Shown: one piece after another, positions 9,856 through 46,100 of the stretch | Position numbering within the stretch: the first letter of the stretch is position 1 | Layout of the letters: each line of letters begins with the position of its first letter | NCBI GenBank assembly: GCA_946409545.1 | Contig: CAMJWT010000001.1 | Location: forward strand, 71,483 to 135,482 | DNA length: 64,000 nucleotides | Direction: 5' to 3' | DNA from: an uncultured Clostridia bacterium | GTDB lineage: Bacteria > Bacillota_I > Bacilli_A > RF39 > UBA660 | Program-made: the position numbers and the translations under genes | Notes under the pieces: generated by a model | Told to the model about the DNA's origin: nothing | Databases searched by the model: none | Seen by the model: the letters and a program-made list of their open reading frames with translations, nothing else

Positions 9856-10695
9856 ATGAACAGAGTATTTTTAGATTTAGGCTTTATAAAAATATATTGG
9901 TATTCAATTATGATTTTAACAGGAGCCATTTTAGGTATTTTTCTTGTATATAAAGAATTTAAAAGATTAAAGTTTGATACTAAAGGATTAGATAATATGG
10001 CTTTTTATACCATTCTTTTTGGTCTTTTAGGAGCAAGAATTTGGTATGTATTATTTAATCTATCAGAATATAAAAATAATTTATTAGAAGTATTTGCTGT
10101 TTGGAATGGTGGACTTGCTATTCATGGAGCTATCTTTGGTGGCTTAACATTTTTATATTTTTATTGTAAGAAGAAAAATATTCATTTCTTAAAAATAGCG
10201 GATGTTGTTATGCCTGCTGTATTAATAGGACAAATCGTAGGTAGATGGGGTAATTTCTTTAATCAAGAAGCTCATGGTGGAGAAGTAACAAGAGCCTTTC
10301 TTGAGAAGTTATGTATTCCGGATTTTATAATTAAAGGTATGTTTATAAGAGGCAAATACTATCATCCAACATTTTTCTATGAATCGATTTTTAATTTGTT
10401 ATTATTACTTTTTATCGTTGTATTTAGAAGATATAAAAAAGTTAAAGAAGGTATGATTTTCTCTATATATTTAATGGGATATGGAATACTAAGATTCTTT
10501 ATTGAAAGTATGAGAACAGATAGTTTGATGCTAGGAAGTATTCGTGTTGCTCAAGTTGTATCTATTGCTTTCTTTATAAGTGGTTTAGTATTAATGATTA
10601 TATCTATTAAAAAACATGATGATTATAATAAAATAGAAGAAAAAGAAGAAACAAAGAAGAAAAACATAAAGAAAAAGAGTAAGAAGGTGAAATAA
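9856..10695 (+). CDS. lgt: Prolipoprotein diacylglyceryl transferase
   Basis: Has the Lgt signature 'GRWGNFFNQEAHGG', multiple TM helices and a Lys-rich tail. Confidence 0.9.
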   Translation: MNRVFLDLGFIKIYWYSIMILTGAILGIFLVYKEFKRLKFDTKGLDNMAFYTILFGLLGARIWYVLFNLSEYKNNLLEVFAVWNGGLAIHGAIFGGLTFLYFYCKKKNIHFLKIADVVMPAVLIGQIVGRWGNFFNQEAHGGEVTRAFLEKLCIPDFIIKGMFIRGKYYHPTFFYESIFNLLLLLFIVVFRRYKKVKEGMIFSIYLMGYGILRFFIESMRTDSLMLGSIRVAQVVSIAFFISGLVLMIISIKKHDDYNKIEEKEETKKKNIKKKSKKVK

Positions 10696-11630
10696 TGCTT
10701 TCTTTCACAATGAATGTTAAAAATGAATTATCATTACAAGATAATGAACGTAACATGGAAATGATTGAACTTTCTGCTTTTATAAGAAATAATGGCAAAT
10801 ATGAAGATAATAAAATAATTCTTAGTACCGAAAATAATAAAGTTGCTAAACATATTTATATATTAATTAAGAAAATGTTTAATGTTGTAGCTAATATTAT
10901 TGATAAAAATAATTCTTTTAATCGAAGTAGATTACTTTTAATAGAAATAAATCAAAAAGTAGAAAATATATTAAAAGATTTATATGTACTATCGGAAGAT
11001 AATAAATATTTATCAAATGTTCCTGATTTTTTTGTTGATAATGAAGATGATAAAAGAGCATATCTACGTGGAGTTTTTCTTGCAACAGGTAGTGTTAATG
11101 ATCCCAAAACAAGTCGATATCATTTAGAATTCTTTATAAATGATGAAGAGGAAGCAAAATATATATCGAGTTTATTAAATGAATTTTATTTAAACAGTAA
11201 GATTATTAAAAAAGAGAAAAAATATATGGTCTATGTTAAAGAGGCCGAAAAAATAGGTGATTTCTTACGAGTTATTAATGCCCCACAAGCTGTAATGTAT
11301 TATGAAGATATAAGAATATATCGTGATCATAAAAATATGACTAATCGTCTTAATAATATGGAACAAGCTAATATTGAGAGAATCATTAATACTTGTAATG
11401 AACAAATCGAAGATATTCACTTGATTCTTGATACTTTAGGTGAACAGTTTTTAGATGAAAAAACATTAGAAGCTGCTACTTATCGATTAAAGTATCCAGA
11501 ATCTTCTCTACAAGAGTTGAGTGATATTATGGAGTATGAGACGGATAAACCGATTACCAAATCGGGATTAAATCATCGTTTTCGTAAAATTAAAGAAATT
11601 GCTAATAGAATAAGGAGTGAGAAAAAATGA
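10695..11630 (+). CDS. whiA: DNA-binding protein WhiA
   Basis: Has 'YLRGVFLATGSVNDPKTSRYHLEF', typical of the WhiA LAGLIDADG-like domain, plus a C-terminal HTH. TAATG overlap with lgt. Confidence 0.8.
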   Translation: MLSFTMNVKNELSLQDNERNMEMIELSAFIRNNGKYEDNKIILSTENNKVAKHIYILIKKMFNVVANIIDKNNSFNRSRLLLIEINQKVENILKDLYVLSEDNKYLSNVPDFFVDNEDDKRAYLRGVFLATGSVNDPKTSRYHLEFFINDEEEAKYISSLLNEFYLNSKIIKKEKKYMVYVKEAEKIGDFLRVINAPQAVMYYEDIRIYRDHKNMTNRLNNMEQANIERIINTCNEQIEDIHLILDTLGEQFLDEKTLEAATYRLKYPESSLQELSDIMEYETDKPITKSGLNHRFRKIKEIANRIRSEKK

Positions 11631-37261: not shown

Positions 37262-38017
37262 ATGATTATTGGAATCATTGTTATTGTCGTTTTTATTATT
37301 TTAGGTTCAATTAAACAAATTGATCAATTTGAAAGAGGAATTAAATTCCAAAGAGGTAAATTCAAGAAAATTATGCAACCAGGATGGAATATCGTATTAC
37401 CTATCATTCAATCATATAGAAAGGTAGATATTCGTACTAAAGCTGTTGACGTACCAGAACAAGATGCTATTACAAAAGATAATGTAAGTGTACGTATTAA
37501 TGCTGTTATTTACTATAAGATATTCGATGCTAGTAAAGCTATTCTTGAAGTTGAAAACTTCTATTATGCTGTATCACAATTAGCTCAAACAACAATGCGT
37601 AATGCTGTTGGTGAAGTATCTCTAGATGAATTATTATCAGAAAGAGAAAAAATATCTGCAAAGATTTGTGAAATTATTGATAAAGCTACTGATCCTTGGG
37701 GAATTAAAGTAGAGAATGTTGAACTTAAAGACGTATCTCTTCCAGAAGAAATGAAGAGAGTTATTGCTCGTGTTGCTGAAGCAGAACGTGAGAAGATGGC
37801 TGTTATTACTAAAGCTCATGGTGAAGTTGAAGCTGCTGAAAACTTAAATAAGGCTGCTGAAACACTTGCTCAAAATCCAGTTGCTGTTCATTTAAGAACT
37901 CTTGAAACTATCAATGATTTATCAAGTGATCAATCAAATACTATTATTTTTGCATTACCACTTGATGTTTTAAAATCATTTGATACATACAATAAAAAGA
38001 ACAGTAAAAGTGAATAG
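37262..38017 (+). CDS. SPFH/band-7 (stomatin-like) membrane protein
   Basis: N-terminal TM helix. 'RGIKFQRGKF...GWNIVLPIIQSYRKVDIRTKAVDVPEQDAITKDNVSVRINAVIYYKI' is stomatin-like. AAAGGAGG RBS. Confidence 0.75.
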   Translation: MIIGIIVIVVFIILGSIKQIDQFERGIKFQRGKFKKIMQPGWNIVLPIIQSYRKVDIRTKAVDVPEQDAITKDNVSVRINAVIYYKIFDASKAILEVENFYYAVSQLAQTTMRNAVGEVSLDELLSEREKISAKICEIIDKATDPWGIKVENVELKDVSLPEEMKRVIARVAEAEREKMAVITKAHGEVEAAENLNKAAETLAQNPVAVHLRTLETINDLSSDQSNTIIFALPLDVLKSFDTYNKKNSKSE

Positions 38018-38042
38018 TGTAAATATCGATTAAAAAGTGATG

Positions 38043-38071
38043 AATTTCATCACTTTTTTTGTTTACCTTTA
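38043..38071 (+). terminator. rho-independent terminator
   Basis: agtgatg-(aattt)-catcact followed by T7. Confidence 0.5.
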
Positions 38072-38109
38072 ATAATTTTGCGTTATATAATTAAAATAGG
38101 AGTGGTGTG

Positions 38110-38337
38110 ATGAAAAAGATAATTTTAGAAGAGAATGGTAAAGATGTTGAATATGATGTTTTGTTTACCTTTAAAGATGAAAAGAATAATAAAGAATATA
38201 TAATATATACGGATGACAGTGAATATTTATATGCAGCTTATTTTGATAATGGAGAAATAAATTATATCGATAATCCCACTGATCAAGCTTTTATCGAAAA
38301 AGTTATTGATATAGTTAAAAAGAGTGTGGAGGAATAA
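38110..38337 (+). CDS. DUF1292-like small acidic protein
   Basis: 76 aa with 'ILEENGKDVEYDVLFTFKDEKNNKEYIIYTDD...'. AGGAG RBS. Confidence 0.5.
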   Translation: MKKIILEENGKDVEYDVLFTFKDEKNNKEYIIYTDDSEYLYAAYFDNGEINYIDNPTDQAFIEKVIDIVKKSVEE

Positions 38338-38338
38338 T

Positions 38339-39448
38339 ATGGCTAAAGTTAGTAATTTTAATGGTAAAGTAGTAAAAAGTGTTGTTCAAAGTAAAAAAAT
38401 ATCATTTGGTTCTAAAATTAGAGTAGTCGTTATTTCTGATTTGCATAATTATACTACTGATAGAGAACAAGCTAGCCGTCTAGCTGAAGAAATAAAAAGA
38501 CAAAATCCCGATTTTATTTTTATAGCAGGTGATATTTTTAATCTTGGAAAACAATGGGAAGATGAAACCTCATTATCAGGATTATGGTATTTTCTTGGTA
38601 ACGTTTCTGAAGTTGCACCAGTATTTATTACATGGGGTAATCATGATATTGTAGGTACTACTGATAAAAATAGAGAAGAAAGGTTAAAGAATCTTCGTCT
38701 TCTTGAAAAAGCAAGACCTGGTGAAGTATATCCACTATATAATGAATGTGTAATCGTAAAAGGTATGGAAGTTATGGGCTTTGTACCAACATTAGGTATT
38801 TTAGGTGGATTATCTAATCAACTTCATGGTATTGCTCATGATAAATTTATAGATATGTATGAAAAGAAAGGTGCAAGATTCTCAAGTGATCCAAGTAGAA
38901 TGAAAACTTACTTAGGTCATAATCCTCATTTAATTGCGGCTTCTGAAAATGGAGTTGGTTTAGGAAGCTTAAAAGTATGTGACTTCTTTGTAACTGGTCA
39001 CTTACACAATGGATATAAATTAGTAATTGAACACTTAAGAAAAATGTTTAAAATGAAACCAAAAGAGTTATCTTCTCTAGCCTTTGATAAAGGCTGGGTT
39101 GAACAACCTATTGTTGTTAATAGAAAAGGTCTTCCGATTCTTACTAGCCTTTATCCAGTTTTTATGGGACATACAAATTTATGCCGAGGAATTGTTTATA
39201 TAGATGATGATGCACAACAAAAATATCTACAGTTACCTGATGGTAGTATGTATAAAAATTCCTCTAGTAAACCTAATGTTCAAGTTTGGGAACCAATTCT
39301 TCCTGATCTTGCAAGAAAAGAAATAATGGATGATGATTTATCATGTATGATTATTTCTGAAGGTATAAATCCAGGCTTTGTTTCTGGTGAAGAAATGGCA
39401 ACAATGAATACTGTTGATTTTGTTAATACAGTTGATAGTCAAAAATAA
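38339..39448 (+). CDS. Calcineurin-like metallophosphoesterase
   Basis: Has the motifs 'VVISDLHN', 'IAGDIFN' and 'TWGNHD'. Confidence 0.7.
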   Translation: MAKVSNFNGKVVKSVVQSKKISFGSKIRVVVISDLHNYTTDREQASRLAEEIKRQNPDFIFIAGDIFNLGKQWEDETSLSGLWYFLGNVSEVAPVFITWGNHDIVGTTDKNREERLKNLRLLEKARPGEVYPLYNECVIVKGMEVMGFVPTLGILGGLSNQLHGIAHDKFIDMYEKKGARFSSDPSRMKTYLGHNPHLIAASENGVGLGSLKVCDFFVTGHLHNGYKLVIEHLRKMFKMKPKELSSLAFDKGWVEQPIVVNRKGLPILTSLYPVFMGHTNLCRGIVYIDDDAQQKYLQLPDGSMYKNSSSKPNVQVWEPILPDLARKEIMDDDLSCMIISEGINPGFVSGEEMATMNTVDFVNTVDSQK

Positions 39449-39475
39449 GATTAGTTTAAAACTAATCTTTTTATT
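39446..39475 (+). terminator. rho-independent terminator
   Basis: Stem agattagt/actaatct followed by T5. Confidence 0.45.
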
Positions 39476-39535
39476 TCTATTGTATTTAAAAAATATTTAT
39501 GGTATCATTTATGTATAATAAGGGATGGTATAGAT

Positions 39536-40405
39536 GTGAATTATACTAGTATTTTTTTGGATTCCATTAAACCAAATTTAGAGGGTATTGATGAAATTAA
39601 AGAAAGACTTGATAATTCGATGGATGAATATAAAAATCTAGATGAATTAGTCTTTTTTATTGGAGATGATTCTAAAAAGATTATTGATTTTCCTAATCAG
39701 GATTTAGTTAATAATTATTTATCGTTAATTTCCAAAGATGAAAAAGAATATCAAGCAATAAAGTACTTAGTTTCAACAAACGATAAAAAGATGCGTTTTT
39801 TACCTCAATATGTTGATTCTGTTGTTAATCTTGAAAGTTTAGCAATAGGTATTAGAAGTATAAAAAATAACTTATCAAGAGAGATTGATGATTTAAGTTC
39901 AACATATTATGAAAAATGGTTAAATAAAAAATATTATGATATCTTCTCTTCTAATAATATTTATTTATCTGATCCAAGTGAGTTTTCTATATATTTAAAA
40001 AAGTTAGAAATTCCAGATGATTTAAAAGTTAATATATTAGGAGAAGCTGTTAAGTGTAATAATATCTATTATCAAAAATATTATGATAATACAGATGATT
40101 ATATTAAGTTTATTAATGATAATCGAATATTCTTATTAAACAAGTTTAAGAGTTTAGAAGATAGTTTAAGTAAATATGTTAATCTAGATTGTAGTTTAGA
40201 AGACATATTAAGTTATAGTAATCGATATGATTTAGAAAACTTATTACTTGCTAAAAAGATATGGATTGTTAATAAAGTTAATGATAATTATTTAAATAAT
40301 GATATGAATGGATTAAATGATTTAATAAAAGATTTTAATTTCATTAATACATTAGAGAACAAGAATAAAGAAGAAATAGAAAGAATAATAAAGGAAGGGC
40401 ATTAA
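39536..40405 (+). CDS. Hypothetical protein (first gene of a coupled three-gene operon)
   Basis: 289 aa. Putative GTG start, so the start is uncertain. No TM helix. Confidence 0.4.
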   Translation: MNYTSIFLDSIKPNLEGIDEIKERLDNSMDEYKNLDELVFFIGDDSKKIIDFPNQDLVNNYLSLISKDEKEYQAIKYLVSTNDKKMRFLPQYVDSVVNLESLAIGIRSIKNNLSREIDDLSSTYYEKWLNKKYYDIFSSNNIYLSDPSEFSIYLKKLEIPDDLKVNILGEAVKCNNIYYQKYYDNTDDYIKFINDNRIFLLNKFKSLEDSLSKYVNLDCSLEDILSYSNRYDLENLLLAKKIWIVNKVNDNYLNNDMNGLNDLIKDFNFINTLENKNKEEIERIIKEGH

Positions 40406-40406
40406 A

Positions 40407-42554
40407 ATGAAAGAAGAATTATTAAAAGTTTTAGAAACAAAGCTAGATAGTATTAATAAAAACATTGAGTCCTTAGATTTAATTAATACTAGATTAAATG
40501 GAGAAGAAGAGAATCTAAACTATGTACAACAAATTCTTGGATATTTTAAAAATGAAGAAGATGGTTATGATATTAATAGATTTTCTTTGTTAGATAAAGA
40601 GAATTTTAATAAATGTTTAGAATTAGTACCAGATTCTACAAAAGGTAAGTTTCAAACTAATAGTTGTAATTATGATGGTCTTGTTTATTTAATAAATGGT
40701 ATCAATAATGGTATTGCTCTTACTTTAACGGAAGAACAACAACAAGCTATTGAATTGATGATTAATGGCCTTAGTGATAAGAAAATTGATTATCAAGCTA
40801 GAATAGATGGTATTAAGTTAGCAAGAGATAGATTAGAAGTTAGTGATCCTAATGCCTTAGAATTATCTAAAGAAAAATATCAAAGTATTGTTAATGAACT
40901 AAATAATAATGATTATATTTCAGAAACTGATGATGTCATTAATGCTATTAACTATTCTAATGTTGAGCAAAATAAAGTTGTTGATATGTTAAGTTATTTA
41001 TTAAAATATAATGCTGACATTTATAATGAAAGAGTAGAAGTAGGACTACAAAATCCAACATATGTTGCAAATGAAGAGGTTCAACAAGTTGTTCCTACTG
41101 AAGAAGTTTATGAAGCTCCAGTTGAAACAAATATGGAAATGCCTGTAGATGTCCCAACAGAAGAAGTATATGAAAATCCTCAAGAAATGGATTTTATGCC
41201 TACTGAAGATTATGAAGAAGTTAGTGCTGAGGAAACAGAAATACCTCAAGAAGAATCTGTTCCTCTTGAAGTATATCAAGAAACTGAAGTTCCAGCAGAT
41301 GTTCCTGTTGATAATACTGAAGTAGAAACACCTATCGAAACAGCTGTTTCAGAAGAAGTACAAGAAGAAATTAATAAATTAGTTACTGAAGAAGAACCAG
41401 AAGAATATCAAAATAGTGAATTAGAAATTACACCAGCTCCTCTTGAAGTAGAAGCACATAGTGACATGATTAATAAAGATGAATTAGATTCTTTATTACA
41501 GGGTTATCATATTAAACTAGATGATGAATTTGATGATAGCTTATTATATGGTGATATTAATAATTATCGTGATATTTTAGATAATCTTCGTAATCAAGAT
41601 GTTTTATCAACAATTAGTAAAAATCAAATATTACTAAAAAATATCTTAATTTATTCTAATAATGAATTAATTGATAATGTTCTTGAAATAATTAGAAATG
41701 ATTTTTCTATCGATGATGATGATTATGTAGAAACAGCTAAGATTACAATTGATACATTACCAGCAATCTTTGTTAATGAACCAATTGGAACATATGATAA
41801 TTTTATTCGTAATGTTGAAATGTTTAAGAGATTAAACTTCGATATGATTAACTTATTTGATTTTAGTAGAGAATTATTAGTAGTTGATAATAACTTACTT
41901 GAAAGTAATTATCAATTAGTAAGTAGATATGATATTAATATTGATGAAAAGAATGCTAAGTATTTACTTGCAATTCCAAATGTTGTTGAAAGAATGGATT
42001 ATTATGTTGAATCTTTATATGATGATAAGATTACTAGAAAGACATTTGATGGTATTAATATTATTAGAATGTATCCAAGTAAACTTGATACTGTAACAGA
42101 TTTAACGATTAAGAGATTGCGTTATTCTAGTGAGAATGGTAAGAAGATGTTTGGTTCTCGTGAAAACAGTATTTCTGGTGAAGTTGCTAATTTAAAAGTA
42201 GATGTTTTGAATATCCCTGATAATTATATGGCTTCATTCTTCAATAATGAATTTGATGATATAACTGGTGAAGAAATAACTTCATTTGAACAAATGCTTC
42301 TAGCTAATAATAATTATCAATTTGTTGAAGATGAATTATTACAAAAATTAAATATGTATCGTGATGGATTAAGATATTCAATTGAAAATGTTAATGTTTC
42401 TTATAATAAAGTATTAAGAAATTACAATATTTTAATTAATAATAATATTGATCCACAAAAAGCATTAGAATTCGCAGTATGTTATAACCTTGTTATTACC
42501 AAAGATGAATACATTAAAGTAAAAAATGTTTTAAATACATTGGGAGGTAAATAA
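40407..42554 (+). CDS. Hypothetical large acidic protein with a central Glu/Pro/Val-rich low-complexity region
   Basis: 715 aa. Start is 2 nt after the upstream stop. Central region '...VPTEEVYEAPVETNMEMPVDVPTEEVYENPQEMDFMPTEDYEE...'. Confidence 0.5.
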   Translation: MKEELLKVLETKLDSINKNIESLDLINTRLNGEEENLNYVQQILGYFKNEEDGYDINRFSLLDKENFNKCLELVPDSTKGKFQTNSCNYDGLVYLINGINNGIALTLTEEQQQAIELMINGLSDKKIDYQARIDGIKLARDRLEVSDPNALELSKEKYQSIVNELNNNDYISETDDVINAINYSNVEQNKVVDMLSYLLKYNADIYNERVEVGLQNPTYVANEEVQQVVPTEEVYEAPVETNMEMPVDVPTEEVYENPQEMDFMPTEDYEEVSAEETEIPQEESVPLEVYQETEVPADVPVDNTEVETPIETAVSEEVQEEINKLVTEEEPEEYQNSELEITPAPLEVEAHSDMINKDELDSLLQGYHIKLDDEFDDSLLYGDINNYRDILDNLRNQDVLSTISKNQILLKNILIYSNNELIDNVLEIIRNDFSIDDDDYVETAKITIDTLPAIFVNEPIGTYDNFIRNVEMFKRLNFDMINLFDFSRELLVVDNNLLESNYQLVSRYDINIDEKNAKYLLAIPNVVERMDYYVESLYDDKITRKTFDGINIIRMYPSKLDTVTDLTIKRLRYSSENGKKMFGSRENSISGEVANLKVDVLNIPDNYMASFFNNEFDDITGEEITSFEQMLLANNNYQFVEDELLQKLNMYRDGLRYSIENVNVSYNKVLRNYNILINNNIDPQKALEFAVCYNLVITKDEYIKVKNVLNTLGGK

Positions 42555-42555
42555 T

Positions 42556-42855
42556 ATGGAATTCTTGATTAAATATAATTTTACAAAGAAAGATATTGAA
42601 ACAATTGAAAAAAGTATAACAGAAACAGAATTAAGAAATGTTAAAATGAATGCCAATAATATTGTTCAAGTAGTTGATTATTTAACTTCACTTGGAATAA
42701 CTAAAGATACAATGAGAGATTTATTTATCTATCAAATTGGTATCTTCCATAGAACTAAAGGTGAACTTGAACAAGTATTTGATGAATATGAAATTGAATC
42801 AATTGTTAAATCATTAAATTATGATGTTAACACAATTGATATGGTTGAATTTTAA
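42556..42855 (+). CDS. Hypothetical small protein (third gene of the operon)
   Basis: 99 aa. Start is 2 nt after the upstream stop. Confidence 0.45.
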   Translation: MEFLIKYNFTKKDIETIEKSITETELRNVKMNANNIVQVVDYLTSLGITKDTMRDLFIYQIGIFHRTKGELEQVFDEYEIESIVKSLNYDVNTIDMVEF

Positions 42856-42906
42856 AAATATCTTGCATTTATAAAATAATTAAGTTAAAATAAATAACAA
42901 TGAAAG

Positions 42907-42947
42907 GAGTAACTATATTTATTTTTAAAATAGTTACTCTTTTTTTG
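42907..42947 (+). terminator. rho-independent terminator preceding the rpoB leader
   Basis: 9-bp stem gagtaacta/tagttactc followed by T7. Confidence 0.55.
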
Positions 42948-43127
42948 TTTAAAATAATGCAAATGTCATAAATGTGTCTAGCATATTGACAAAATAAAAG
43001 AAAATTGATTATTTCCTTTCTTTTTTGTTGACTAGAAATATTATTTGTGTTATTAATATATGTTGGCGACATATTATTTTGTATAATATGTAATAGTAAA
43101 AAATAATACGTAATGGGGTGAATTTTA

Positions 43128-46100
43128 ATGGCTTATAAGCTAGTTAATTGTGGCGATTATCGTCAAAGAAGATCCTTCTCAAGGATAAAGAAAAGTTATG
43201 AATTAAAAGATTTACTTGAAATTCAAAAAAAGAGTTATCAATGGTTTGTTGATACAGGTATAAAAGAAGTATTTGATGACTTGTTCCCCGTAGAAAATTT
43301 CTCTGGAACTCTATCATTAGAATTTGGTGATTATCATTTTGATGAACCAAGATATTCAATTAAAGAAAGTAAGGATAGAGAGTCTACTTATGCAGCTCCA
43401 CTTAAGATTGATGTTAGATTATTTAATCATGAAACCGGTGAAGTAAAAGAACAAGAAATATTCTTAGGTGATATGCCAGTAATGACGGATAGTGGTACTT
43501 TCATTATCAATGGTGCAGAACGTGTAATTGTATCTCAATTAGTAAGAAGTCCAAGTGTATACTTTAATCGTGAAATTGATAAGAGTGGTAGAAGTTTAAT
43601 TACATCACAAATTATTCCAACACGTGGTACATGGTTAGAATTCGAAACTGATGCTAGAGATGTTGTATATGTTCGTATTGATAGAACAAGAAAAGTAGCT
43701 TTAACTACCCTTTTACGTGCTTTTGGTTTATCTAGTGACGAAGATATTTACAAAGTCTTTGGTAAAGATCCATATATTGAAAATACAATAGCTAAAGATA
43801 GTACAAGAAATACTGATGAAGCTTTAATTGAAATATATGAAAAATTAAGACCAGGAGAACCTAGTACACTTGATAGTTCTAAAAACCAAATTATTACAAG
43901 ATTCTTTGATGAATTCCGTTATGATTTAGCCCGTGTAGGACGTTATAAATTTAATAGAAAGTTAAATGTAACAGATAGATTATTAAATCAAACTTTAGCA
44001 GAAGATATTAAAGTTGATAATGAAGTTAAATTTGCTAAAGATACATTAATTACAAAAGATGTCTTAGAAGAAATGAAGACTATCTTTAATAGTGGTTATA
44101 ATTTAAAACCAGCTAAGATTAATGAAGAATTAGATACTTATGGAAATATTCAAACAATTAAGATTTATAATCCTAATGATAAGAAAGAAAAATTAATTGT
44201 AATCGGTAATGATTATAATATAGATGTTAAGAGATTAACTATTAGTGATGTTTATGCATCAGTAAGTTATTACTTAAACTTATTACATGGTGTTGGTAAC
44301 TTCGATGAAATTGACCATTTAGGTAATCGTCGTATTAGACAAGTAGGAGAATTATTACAAAATCAATTTAGAATTGGTGTAGCTCGTATGGAAAGAGTTA
44401 TTCGTGAACGTATGACTACTCAAGAAATGGATGAAGTAACTCCTAAAACATTAATTAATATAAGACCAGTTACAGCTGCTATGAAAGAGTTCTTTGGTTC
44501 ATCACAACTTTCACAATTCATGGATCAAACGAACCCACTTGCAGAATTAACTAATAAACGTCGTCTATCTGCTTTAGGTCCAGGTGGATTATCAAGAGAT
44601 AGAGCTGGTGTTGAAGTACGTGACGTTAACCCTTCACATTATGGACGTATTTGTCCTATTGAATCACCAGAAGGACAAAATATTGGTCTTATTACTTCAC
44701 TTGCTAGTTACGCTAAAATTGATGAATATGGATTTATTATGACTCCATATCGTAAGGTTGAAAATAAGAAATTAACTGATGAAGTTGTTTATTTAACAGC
44801 CGATGAAGAACAAGATTATGTTATTTCACAAGCTACTATTGAAGTAGATGATAAATTTAATATTGTACCTGAAAAAGTAACAGCTCGTTATAAAGGTGAA
44901 AATATTATTACTAAATCAGAAGATGTTGATTATGTCGATGTATCACCACAACAAGTAGTTGCTGTAACAACAAGTTGTATTCCATTCCTAGAACACGATG
45001 ATGCAACTCGTGCTTTGATGGGTGCAAACATGCAACGTCAATCAGTACCATTACTTAGAAGTGAAGCTCCATTTGTTGGAACAGGTGTAGAATATGCAGC
45101 TGCTCGTGACTCTGGTGCTGTAGTTCTTGCTAAAGCAGATGGTGTTGTTGATTATGTTGATGCTAAGAAGATTGTTATTAAAAATGCTAAGGGACAAGAT
45201 GTTTATTATATGTCTAACTATGAGTTATCAAACTCTGGTTCTATTTCACATCAACGTCCAATTGTTCATGTAGGTGATAAGATTAAACGTGGTCAAACAA
45301 TTGCTGATGGACCAAGTACTAATCAAGGTGAACTTGCCCTAGGTAAGAATATGGTTGTTGCCTTCATGACATTTAATGGTTATAACTATGAAGATGCCGT
45401 TGTATTAAATGAAAATTTAGTTAAAGACGATGTATTCACATCACTTTATCTAGAAGATTATCAAATGCAATGTCGTGATACCAAATTAGGTCCTGAAGAG
45501 ATTACTCGTGATATTCCAAATGTTAGTGAAGAATCTCGTAAGAACTTAGACGAAAATGGTATTGTAATGATTGGTACAGAAGTACATGAAGGTGATATCT
45601 TAGTTGGTAAAGTAACTCCAAAAGGTATGGCTGAACTTACTTCAGAAGAAAAATTATTACATGCTATCTTCGGTGAAAAAACAAGAGAAGTTCGTGATAC
45701 ATCACTTCGTGTTCCACATGGTGGCGATGGTATTGTTCACGATGTTAAGATATATAGTAGAAAAGATAATGATGAATTACCAGCTGGTGTTTCTAAAGTT
45801 ATTAGAATTTATATAATTCAAAAACGTAAGATTCAAGTTGGTGATAAGATGTCTGGTCGTCATGGTAATAAAGGTGTTATTTCACTTATTCTTCCACAAG
45901 AAGATATGCCATTCTTACCAGATGGTCGTCCAGTTGATGTAATGTTAAACCCAATGGGTGTTCCATCACGTATGAATATTGGACAAATCCTAGAACTTCA
46001 TTTAGGTATGGCTGCTAAGAAATTAGGAGTTTACTGTGCTACACCAGTATTTGATGGTGCAACAATAGATGATGTTCATGAAATGATGGCTGAAGCTCAT

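Follow-up and report, generated by a model that had tools for sequence, protein, structure and literature searches.

The locus described here comprises three genes, ORF1, ORF2 and ORF3, together with the signals that flank them, within a window of 64,000 nucleotides (the whole stretch of DNA that was analysed). The features are as follows.

39447..39478, + strand: upstream intrinsic terminator, a 10-bp A+T-rich hairpin (39447-39469) followed by a U-run
39480..39508, + strand: candidate promoter, inferred by eye, TTGTAT, 17 nt, TGgTATCAT (extended -10)
39520..39525, + strand: RBS AAGGGA, 10 nt 5' of the ORF1 GTG at 39536
39536-40405, + strand: ORF1, 289 aa, GTG start
40407-42554, + strand: ORF2, 715 aa
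42556-42855, + strand: ORF3, 99 aa
about 42896-42949, + strand: operon intrinsic terminator, a hairpin followed by U7, with the 5' arm AAAGGAGTAACT

The positions and lengths of the three genes agree with those in a first-pass annotation, as does the stop-N-ATG pattern it described; its spacing of 2 nt needs correction, since the gap from stop to start is 1 nt at both the ORF1/ORF2 junction (TAAaATG) and the ORF2/ORF3 junction (TAAtATG). The same annotation had placed terminators on either side, which RNA folding bears out: the hairpin at 39447-39469 has a dG of -8 kcal/mol (z -3.6) and that at 42896-42949 a dG of -20.1 kcal/mol (z -7.5), with 0/200 shuffles as stable in either case and a U-run after each. 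The first terminator belongs to the upstream metallophosphoesterase gene. The second is present as a single copy within the window, its 5' arm is sequence-conserved among relatives, and an equivalent hairpin and U-run follows ORF3 in 31/31 related loci. Both were missed by a consensus scanner because their stems are A+T-rich; similarly, the candidate promoter was not listed by the consensus scan because its -35 hexamer matches at only three of six positions. An Rfam search of positions 38000-44000 returned no match.

Architecture and kinship of the encoded proteins

ORF2, the largest of the three proteins, can be divided into four parts.

40407..41042, + strand: N-terminal helical domain, residues 1-212, with motif SCNYDGLVYLINGINNG; AlphaFold pLDDT 82-92
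41043..41459, + strand: polyanionic linker, residues 213-351, predicted disordered; AlphaFold pLDDT <50
41460..42011, + strand: first half of the C-domain, residues 352-535, all-helical repeat
42012..42554, + strand: second half of the C-domain, residues 536-715 plus the stop codon, alpha/beta subdomain

In the AlphaFold model, two confident domains surround the disordered segment, and the motif listed for the N-terminal domain is conserved in alignment A1. The linker corresponds to the acidic region rich in E, P, V and T that had been noticed at first pass; it spans 139 aa and holds a net charge of -42 with one basic residue. Among 34 ORF2 homologues it varies from 98 to 209 aa and from -24 to -61 in net charge, remaining always polyanionic, and its sequence is unconserved. 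The two halves of the C-domain carry net charges of -21 (residues 352-535) and -3 (residues 536-715), the latter half bearing the family signature TIKRLRYSSENGKKxFG and ISYNKVLRNY. The conserved basic residues of ORF2 are grouped at 569-597 and 668-671.

Profile comparisons show ORF1 (pI 4.7) to be, at the level of sequence, a paralogue of the ORF2 N-terminal domain over residues about 10-185, while residues 186-289 constitute an extension found in some lineages only; most ORF1 homologues measure 175-207 aa. The hhalign alignment of ORF1 with the ORF2 N-domain runs end to end over 175 columns (E 1.3e-4, probability 53%), and real ORF2 N-domains reach a median score of 13.4 bits with the ORF1 HMM and a maximum of 26 bits, against 11.0 bits for the best of 3,700 shuffles.

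ORF3 is a proline-free, eight-helix protein of pI 4.6 that resembles the mTERF motif, and it ends in a C-terminal tail, SxNYDVNTxDxIEF, that is invariant and predicted to be disordered. Its kinship to the ORF2 C-domain repeat unit, first hinted at by an HMM search of a tiny database, was rejected as sequence paralogy: 38 of 4,700 shuffles equalled or exceeded the score of the best real match, and hhalign of ORF3 against the ORF2 C-domain was negative. No DNA tandem repeat was found. A hydrophobic heptad pattern is visible by eye in ORF2 and ORF3.

All three proteins, and every domain within them, are acidic (pI 4.1-5.1), and none has a transmembrane segment by Kyte-Doolittle analysis, as had been claimed at first pass, the maximal 19-residue mean being 0.6-1.0 as opposed to 3.3 in the neighbouring SPFH protein. 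The earlier description of them as unknown proteins holds insofar as nothing in Pfam, NCBIfam, PHROGs or PADLOC reaches a curated threshold, so that no well-known family is matched in these libraries, and PDB sequences searched with the ORF2, ORF3 and distant-family profiles gave nothing significant; it fails in that the predicted folds of the ORF2 C-domain and ORF3 resemble mTERF and ORF1 is related to the ORF2 N-domain. The three are functional genes under purifying selection: against relative L014, which is 90% identical, dN/dS is 0.16 for ORF1, 0.13 for ORF2 and 0.03 for ORF3 (rpoB, 0.04), and within ORF2 it is 0.10 in the N-terminal domain and 0.37 in the linker.

Conservation of the operon and the wider superfamily

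ORF1, ORF2 and ORF3 form one native chromosomal transcription unit that is tightly coupled and co-conserved. Neither of the outcomes named at first pass as a refutation, a match to well-known families or a lack of co-conservation, was observed. Among contigs of related rumen and gut MAGs, ORF3 lies 3' of ORF2 in 36/36 loci, mostly with a 1-nt overlap, and ORF1 lies 5' of ORF2 in 31 of 34, being absent from the other three and from L020. Whether the trio is always syntenic, a question raised at first pass, can thus be answered in the affirmative for ORF2 and ORF3, which are the invariable core, and in the negative for ORF1; the trio as such is not strictly obligatory. The carriers constitute a clade of uncultured rumen/gut Bacilli/Erysipelotrichaceae-type MAGs, and the operon is confined to this clade, in keeping with the suggestion of a lineage-specific system.

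Beyond the clade, the ORF2 C-domain and ORF3 recur as a pair. With clusters defined at 50% identity, an exhaustive profile search recovered 219 representatives at E <= 1e-3, and 51 of these reach E <= 1e-30. Members share the conserved C-domain residues N469, Y508, D531, E535, Y657 and S665-x-x-K668-x-x-R671 (ORF2 numbering), usually followed by a coupled ORF3 homologue of ~95-100 aa. Among six distant contexts at other chromosomal sites (five of them loci with DNA, the sixth GCA_016648615.1, for which the gene table alone was read), an ORF3 homologue stands directly downstream in three; the distant downstream gene matches ORF3 with an hhalign probability of 98.3% (E 1.7e-14) and HMM E-values from 4e-16 to 7e-13. 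Neighbours in these contexts include gpr/spoIIP, PRC-barrel and glycosyltransferase genes, and pssA/psd, and the upstream partner proteins (325-630 aa) do not resemble ORF1 significantly. Scanning 35 distant relatives, their neighbours and odd-length relatives against Pfam yielded nothing significant. The ORF2-C/ORF3 pair is the conserved core of an undescribed Bacillota protein superfamily that has no Pfam model, in which S665, K668 and R671 represent a clear candidate functional site. A penicillin-binding-type active site was considered for the S-x-x-K motif and dropped, as no fold match supported it.

Resemblance to mTERF proteins and possible roles

In mitochondria and chloroplasts, mTERF proteins hold a central place in the regulation of gene expression. 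MTERF1 binds DNA, whereas MTERF3, MTERF4 and mS93 bind rRNA or the ribosome; MTERF4 is a stoichiometric adaptor with a partner protein, serving an RNA-modifying enzyme in the MTERF4-NSUN4 pair. Foldseek comparison of the AlphaFold models, a check proposed in the first-pass annotation, placed mTERF proteins at the top for ORF2, the leading two matches being MTERF3 and MTERF1 with probabilities of 0.89-0.90. Foldseek gives no aligned residues, and the match was assigned to residues 352-535 of the model by helix pattern. For ORF3 there were four matches in all, including MTERF1 and mS93, with E-values of 4.7-9.5; first among them ranks chain y, probably MTERF4, of a mitoribosome assembly intermediate. 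As modelled, the ORF2 C-domain and ORF3 have the ~30-residue three-helix units and superhelical solenoid of the mTERF fold, and the models show both to be mTERF-like in this sense of fold resemblance.

The sequence-level evidence differs between the two proteins. ORF3 scores 17.8 bits (E 0.0017) against Pfam mTERF PF02536, below the gathering score of 23.1 bits, and this family is the commonest sub-threshold match of ORF3 homologues (22/44, best E 6.5e-5). None of 34 ORF2 homologues has even a weak match to it, and 1 of 35 distant relatives does (E 7.9e-4). Comparing the profiles of the ORF2 C-domain and of ORF3 each with itself revealed no internal repeats, with a best off-diagonal probability of <1%. 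The mTERF unit signature, in which position 8 is proline and positions 11, 18 and 25 are hydrophobic (Roberti 2009, as cited in PMC11417379), is absent, for ORF3 lacks proline and P452 alone is invariant and comparably placed in the ORF2 C-domain.

Taken together, these observations favour, at a tentative probability of about 0.45, a soluble, hetero-oligomeric and acidic mTERF-like adaptor or regulator that would act on nucleic acid or a nucleic-acid machine. ORF2 would be the hub, its N-terminal domain most likely pairing with the paralogous ORF1 and its linker of 100-200 residues tethering the C-terminal domain; ORF3, as a mini mTERF-like protein, would probably dock onto ORF2 through its invariant acidic-aromatic tail. 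Complex formation is suggested by the coupling of the genes and by the paralogy of ORF1 with the ORF2 N-domain, and we infer its target and the role of the linker by analogy: the conserved basic patch on the C-domain of ORF2 may be where the complex contacts a nucleic acid or a nucleic-acid machine, and the polyanionic linker may serve as a spacer or compete with nucleic acid by mimicry. Classic nucleic-acid binding by a basic groove fits poorly with the acidity of all three proteins. A more far-reaching version, in which ORF2 and ORF3 form a second, architecturally distinct bacterial mTERF class (a split large/mini complex with ORF1 as partner and a nucleic-acid-mimicking linker, with transcription or the biogenesis of ribosomes as its target in gut Bacillota), must be regarded as unlikely.

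The alternative that best survives, though somewhat unlikely, is a protein-only scaffold without a nucleic-acid role, serving for instance cell division, the envelope, sporulation or proteostasis. Basic protein partners would be bound, or assembly driven, by the helical repeats together with the polyanionic linker, and the mTERF likeness would come down to a common solenoid geometry. The acidity of every domain suits such a scaffold, as do the coiled-coil and helical-bundle proteins that follow the mTERFs among the Foldseek matches, the distant relatives' lack of a consistent place beside transcription or translation genes, and the fast evolution of ORF2 (~41% identical where rpoB is ~89% identical), a trait of many structural and scaffold proteins. 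However, the top fold matches are mTERF specifically rather than HEAT, ARM or TPR, the mTERF sequence signal of ORF3 is not compositional (0/10 shuffled controls match Pfam mTERF), a basic S-x-x-K-x-x-R helix is among the features conserved throughout the superfamily, and the sole characterised prokaryotic mTERF-like proteins bind DNA (PMC11417379).

The chromosomal setting bears on a further alternative, by which the operon would encode a regulator of rpoBC expression or an RNA polymerase accessory factor, with the linker as a delta-like acidic tail and the hairpin after ORF3 as an attenuator. The operon adjoins (MTS-)rpoB-rpoC directly on their 5' side at every clade locus reaching that far, the hairpin is conserved in sequence as noted above, and both mTERF1 and, in plants, mTERF6 terminate transcription (PMC6085346). 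Nevertheless, the adjacency is missing in distant relatives with the ORF2-C/ORF3 pair; the wider Bacillota family keeps this pair elsewhere on the chromosome, and the rpoB adjacency is therefore a matter of clade colinearity, as exemplified by L072, which is colinear with the window locus from dnaB to tpi. The hairpin itself looks like an ordinary intrinsic terminator with A-tract and U-tract, so that transcription of the operon is kept apart from that of rpoB. Clade colinearity, the conserved terminator and the absence from distant relatives mean that the rpoB neighbourhood, offered at first pass as a functional hint, provides no evidence for a link to RNA polymerase. In Pfam and NCBIfam the operon proteins resemble neither delta nor another family that binds RNA polymerase, a JGI 'sigma54-like' label and weak Sigma54_CBD matches in 2 of 44 homologues being probably spurious, and the RNA polymerase explanation is accordingly improbable.

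Other neighbours were considered in the same manner. The metallophosphoesterase, also suggested as a hint, is kept in the closest relatives L015 and L049 only, an SPFH gene lying directly upstream at the other loci, and a functional tie to it was rejected since the adjacency is unconserved. In most relatives an MTS/YbxB-like gene, divided from the operon by the terminator, stands between ORF3 and rpoB; it is missing from the window and its subclade, and its place beside rpoB is ancestral in Firmicutes (rplL-ybxB-rpoB order in B. subtilis). A tie to this methyltransferase on the analogy of MTERF4-NSUN4 was considered and found unsupported. Finally, an anti-phage defence, toxin-antitoxin or mobile module inserted by chance beside rpoB is very improbable and was rejected: quick evolution, an unannotated family and weak PADLOC matches (PtuB, E 2e-4, over 47 residues of ORF1; DpdG, E 2.6e-4, for ORF3) speak for it, but the matches are short, sub-significant and mutually unrelated, GC3 is host-like (0.10-0.14, as in neighbouring genes), purifying selection is strong, the operon keeps one chromosomal position throughout the clade, no integrase or mobile-element gene was seen among the neighbours inspected, and no relatives were found in phages, plasmids or IMG/VR.

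The analysis adds a conserved operon of gut and rumen Bacillota that encodes a predicted mTERF-like hub with a polyanionic linker and a mini mTERF-like partner, a tractable bacterial system for the role of the mTERF fold outside organelles, and it delineates a sizeable 'dark' superfamily of 219 clusters around the candidate site. To our knowledge, organellar mTERF regulators were long believed to be restricted to eukaryotes; a second bacterial mTERF class, if true, would supply a counterpart and possibly an evolutionary relative of them. If the likeness is convergent, the result would still be of use in annotating an acidic scaffold complex specific to the lineage, albeit of far less importance.

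Comparison with known systems

In the delta subunit (RpoE) of Firmicutes RNA polymerase, a long disordered polyanionic region comes after a small folded domain, and the present locus likewise has a polyanionic protein encoded beside rpoB. The acidic part of ORF2, however, is an internal E/V/P/T-rich linker rather than a C-terminal D/E tail, and its adjacency to rpoB is unconserved outside the clade.

Likeness to the eukaryotic mTERF family (PF02536: MTERF1-4, plant mTERFs and mS93) extends to the recurrent sub-threshold Pfam match of ORF3 homologues, with no match at the gathering score, and the repeats of ORF2 and ORF3 are degenerate, without detectable sequence periodicity. In contrast to the eukaryotic proteins, the operon is bacterial, its products are acidic rather than basic and the signature proline is mostly gone; ORF2 adds an N-terminal helical domain, the polyanionic linker and a C-terminal alpha/beta subdomain, and the system is divided between two coupled genes, one for a large and one for a mini mTERF-like protein.

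In the literature searched, there appears to be one report of prokaryotic mTERF-like proteins, namely the pTERFs of 2024 (Nucleic Acids Res 2024, PMC11417379), which were presented as the first distant prokaryotic mTERF homologues, with pTERF1 being MBQ3414883.1. These are tandem-repeat proteins of uncultured Bacillota, rumen MAGs included, that bind DNA with nanomolar affinity and are built as regular arrays of 3-11 three-helix mTERF-like units (PMC11417379); the candidate identifier TR_35_C32_2 suggests a period of 35 residues. ORF2 and ORF3 share with them a source in uncultured Bacillota, including rumen MAGs, and mTERF-like three-helix units. Judged by the pTERF description, they differ in having no regular tandem array of ~35-residue near-identical units, and they are instead acidic proteins with added domains, encoded within a conserved three-gene operon.

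Operon organization and coding content

The three consecutive genes upstream of rpoB, in a window of 28% G+C, constitute a native, insulated, and translationally coupled operon, the elements of which are listed here together with the genes that precede it.

36413-37081, gene for a 222-aa protein with no family match
38107-39448, DUF1292-like gene (76 aa) and calcineurin-like metallophosphoesterase gene (374 aa) with a 14-nt overlap, between the SPFH gene and the operon
39447-39469, upstream terminator, hairpin followed by a U-run (dG -8 kcal/mol, z -3.6)
39536-40405, + strand, ORF1, 289 aa, GTG start
40407-42554, + strand, ORF2, 715 aa
42556-42855, + strand, ORF3, 99 aa
about 42896-42949, downstream terminator, hairpin followed by U7 (dG -20.1 kcal/mol, z -7.5)

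The ORF listing reproduces the protein lengths of the first-pass annotation, and the stop-N-ATG pattern described there is found at both junctions (TAAaATG for ORF1/ORF2, TAAtATG for ORF2/ORF3); the accompanying spacing of 2 nt is corrected to a stop-to-start gap of 1 nt. The ORF1 GTG follows an AAGGGA ribosome-binding site after 10 nt, the N-terminus MNYTSIFLD is kept among homologues, and a candidate promoter of the extended -10 type (TTGTAT, 17 nt, TGgTATCAT) was read by eye in the interval from the upstream terminator to this AAGGGA site. Folding confirms the terminators annotated on both sides of the operon, neither of which was picked up by a consensus scanner because their stems are A+T-rich. 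Similarly, the annotated lack of TM helices agrees with the absence of any hydrophobic segment from ORF1-3, the top Kyte-Doolittle 19-residue mean being ≤1.0 versus 3.3 in the neighbouring SPFH protein. The proteins also retain their status as members of no recognised family, with no above-threshold match in Pfam, NCBIfam, PHROGs, or PADLOC and no match in profile searches of PDB sequences, while every database homologue is unnamed and of MAG or metagenome origin.

On the - strand, a terminator-like match inside the acidic-linker coding region (41241-41274) and a 77-aa ORF opposite that region (41046-41279) were rejected as features, being by-products of GAA/GTT-rich sequence.

Domain architecture and predicted fold

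An alignment of 34 ORF2 sequences resolves two conserved parts, the N-domain (1-212) and the C-domain (352-715), on either side of a hypervariable linker, in keeping with an AlphaFold2 model (mean pLDDT 76.5) in which both domains are confident and residues 213-351 are disordered. The acidic region rich in E, P, V, and T noticed earlier in the 715-aa protein maps to these residues, 213-351, with a net charge of -42. All 34 homologues carry such a linker of 98-209 residues (D+E 27-43%, net charge -24 to -61), so that its polyanionic character is conserved and its sequence is not. A [DE]FHF motif occurs in 16 of the 34 linkers (alignment columns about 306-312), is absent from the window's subclade, and is a possible short linear motif for docking.

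By profile comparison, ORF1 and the ORF2 N-domain are paralogues. A profile built from 40 ORF1 sequences aligns end-to-end with the N-domain over 175 columns (E 1.3e-4, probability 53%), as compared with E 0.047 and probability 1% for the C-domain control; in HMMER, the median score of real N-domains is 13.4 bits (maximum 26), and 73% of them beat every shuffle (best of 3,700, 11.0 bits). The ORF1 profile further matches residues 4-195, the N-domain, of the distant ORF2-like protein at L008. Lengths of 175-207 aa are usual among ORF1 homologues; the 289-aa protein of the window carries 100 additional residues at its C-terminus.

An mTERF-like fold for both ORF2 and ORF3 has moderate support from predicted structures and profiles. 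For ORF2, the top Foldseek ranks against the PDB are MTERF3 (3m66) and MTERF1 (3mva), with probabilities of 0.89-0.90 and E-values of 0.17-0.34, and the other matches are generic coiled coils attributed to the N-domain; moreover, residues 357-535 of the model repeat a long-long-short helix pattern that fits three-helix mTERF units. Against this, Pfam mTERF was matched by none of 34 ORF2 homologues. For ORF3, Pfam mTERF is the commonest match among homologues (22/44, best E 6.5e-5; none of 10 composition-matched shuffles), the window's copy being sub-threshold (E 0.0017). Its predicted structure comprises eight helices (pLDDT 87), and three of its four Foldseek matches are mTERF-type, with poor E-values (4.7-9.5). 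Membership of ORF2 and ORF3 in PF02536 is not established, neither matching at threshold. One ORF3 homologue bears the JGI name 'DNA-directed RNA polymerase specialized sigma54-like protein', and Sigma54_CBD is weakly matched by 2 of 44 homologues (best E 0.0037); this resemblance is probably a spurious similarity among helical proteins.

Searching 1.84 billion cluster representatives exhaustively with a profile extends the superfamily to 219 proteins at E <= 1e-3, 51 of them at E <= 1e-30. A second tier, made up of 550-700-aa proteins, matches the C-domain alone. The six distant contexts inspected adjoin gpr-spoIIP (L008), rplU-rpmA-obg (L009), PRC-barrel, glycosyltransferase, and ApbE genes (L011, L012), or frr, pssA, and psd (L013, GCA_016648615.1). 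Three of the six (L008, L011, L012) have an ORF3 homologue of 94-101 aa directly downstream (hhalign probability 98.3%, E 1.7e-14; HMM E 4e-16 to 7e-13), and the upstream partners are varied, with no detectable kinship to ORF1, which points to ORF2-C plus ORF3 as the conserved core. Residues N469, Y508, D531, E535, Y657, S665, K668, V669, and R671 are conserved in both tiers; S665-x-x-K668-x-x-R671 (42400-42420) together with D531 and E535 stand out as the shared polar residues, also in the distant ORF2-like family, and no known motif accounts for them. The most marked signature, and the leading candidate for a functional site, is the S-x-x-K-x-x-R helix that follows a beta-hairpin. At L008, a 445-aa protein downstream of the ORF2/ORF3 pair (10182-11519) weakly matches the C-terminal signature subdomain (HMM E 9e-4, 22-sequence search) and possibly represents a further paralogue within the module.

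Taken as a working model, the three proteins would assemble into one complex in which ORF1 pairs with the ORF2 N-domain and ORF3 docks on ORF2 via its invariant, acidic-aromatic, predicted-disordered C-terminal tail (D-x-I-E-F-COOH). By analogy with mTERFs and with the pTERFs, a prokaryotic mTERF-like class of rumen Bacillota that binds DNA (PMC11417379), the complex would serve as an adaptor or regulator whose target is a nucleic acid or a nucleic-acid machine. One rival reading is a purely protein-binding scaffold. The chief objection to canonical nucleic-acid binding along the mTERF groove is charge: each of the three proteins and each domain is acidic (pI 4.1-5.1), the mTERF-like half of ORF2 carries a net -21, and the distant family ranges from acidic to neutral. 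Conserved basic residues cluster in the C-terminal subdomain of ORF2.

Synteny, relation to rpoB, and native origin

Strong ORF2 homologues number >120, and the gene is present in six species-representative genomes. By title these are MAGs of uncultured Erysipelotrichaceae, Bacilli, or Clostridia, recovered from rumen (RUG), horse faeces, and the human gut (Hadza); another 58 loci came from a metagenome scan. Among loci with sufficient flanking sequence, ORF3 lies directly 3' of ORF2 in 36/36, most commonly with a 1-nt overlap, and ORF1 lies upstream in 31/34. In one subclade (L016, L018, L019, also L020), ORF1 is absent and ORF2 begins ~170-200 nt past the SPFH gene, while the sister loci L017 and L021 retain ORF1, which is therefore dispensable or relocated. 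On the earlier question of whether the trio is always syntenic, the ORF2/ORF3 pair is invariable in the close clade and ORF1 is not. The metallophosphoesterase gene, whose adjacency had been considered suggestive but not diagnostic, precedes the operon, together with the DUF1292-like gene, only in the closest relatives (L015, L049). In the distant set, L009 likewise has a DUF1292 gene in the vicinity of its ORF2-like gene. In tblastn, the 222-aa protein (36413-37081) shows 26-29% identity over ~2 kb in L014-L019, suggesting a relative that is much longer or repeated there.

Adjacency to rpoB, likewise considered suggestive, is real in the clade and would favour an rpoBC-specific regulator; the context data speak against this reading. 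A relative with 64% ORF2 identity (L072) shares the window's gene order from dnaB to tpi, so the adjacency reflects clade-wide colinearity; a hairpin and U-run follow ORF3 in 31/31 loci, which insulates the operon transcriptionally from rpoB; and rpoB was near none of the ORF2-like genes in the six distant contexts. In most relatives, ORF3 and rpoB are separated by a gene for an MTS-type SAM methyltransferase (PF05175, E 1e-40 or better; for instance, L002 6244-6843, L005 8888-9469, and L007 5012-5653) that resembles B. subtilis ybxB. It is absent from this interval in the window (42856-43127) and its subclade, and tblastn found no copy elsewhere in the 64 kb.

The post-ORF3 hairpin (42896-42949) occurs once within the window. 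Its 5' arm, GAAAGGAGUAACU, includes a Shine-Dalgarno-like AAAGGAG and is sequence-conserved with compensatory variants among L002-L063, despite ORF2 identity of only ~40%; the hairpin may be a plain terminator or may act as an attenuator ahead of (MTS-)rpoBC.

A defence or mobile module is disfavoured by the surroundings: housekeeping genes (rplI, dnaB, rlmH, a UDG-family gene, SPFH, rpoB, rpoC, pgk) enclose the operon, its third-position G+C of 0.10-0.14 equals that of its neighbours, and no relatives were found in GenBank phages, PLSDB plasmids, or IMG/VR. ORF1-3 are real, native genes, with dN/dS against the relative L014 of 0.16 for ORF1, 0.13 for whole ORF2 (N-domain 0.10, linker 0.37, C-domain 0.07), and 0.03 for ORF3, as compared with 0.04 for rpoB. 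At the level of divergence where rpoB identity is ~89%, identity is ~85% for SPFH, ~50% for ORF3, ~41% for ORF2, and ~27% for ORF1; the operon evolves fast yet under constraint.

Comparison with known systems

The operon lies outside every curated family. As a dark-matter system it is well defined, with an organelle-like fold and fold scores that are no more than moderate. Its closest known kinds are the eukaryotic mTERFs, by fold, and the pTERFs, the one prokaryotic mTERF-like class in the literature searched; architecture, charge, and operon organization set it apart from the two.
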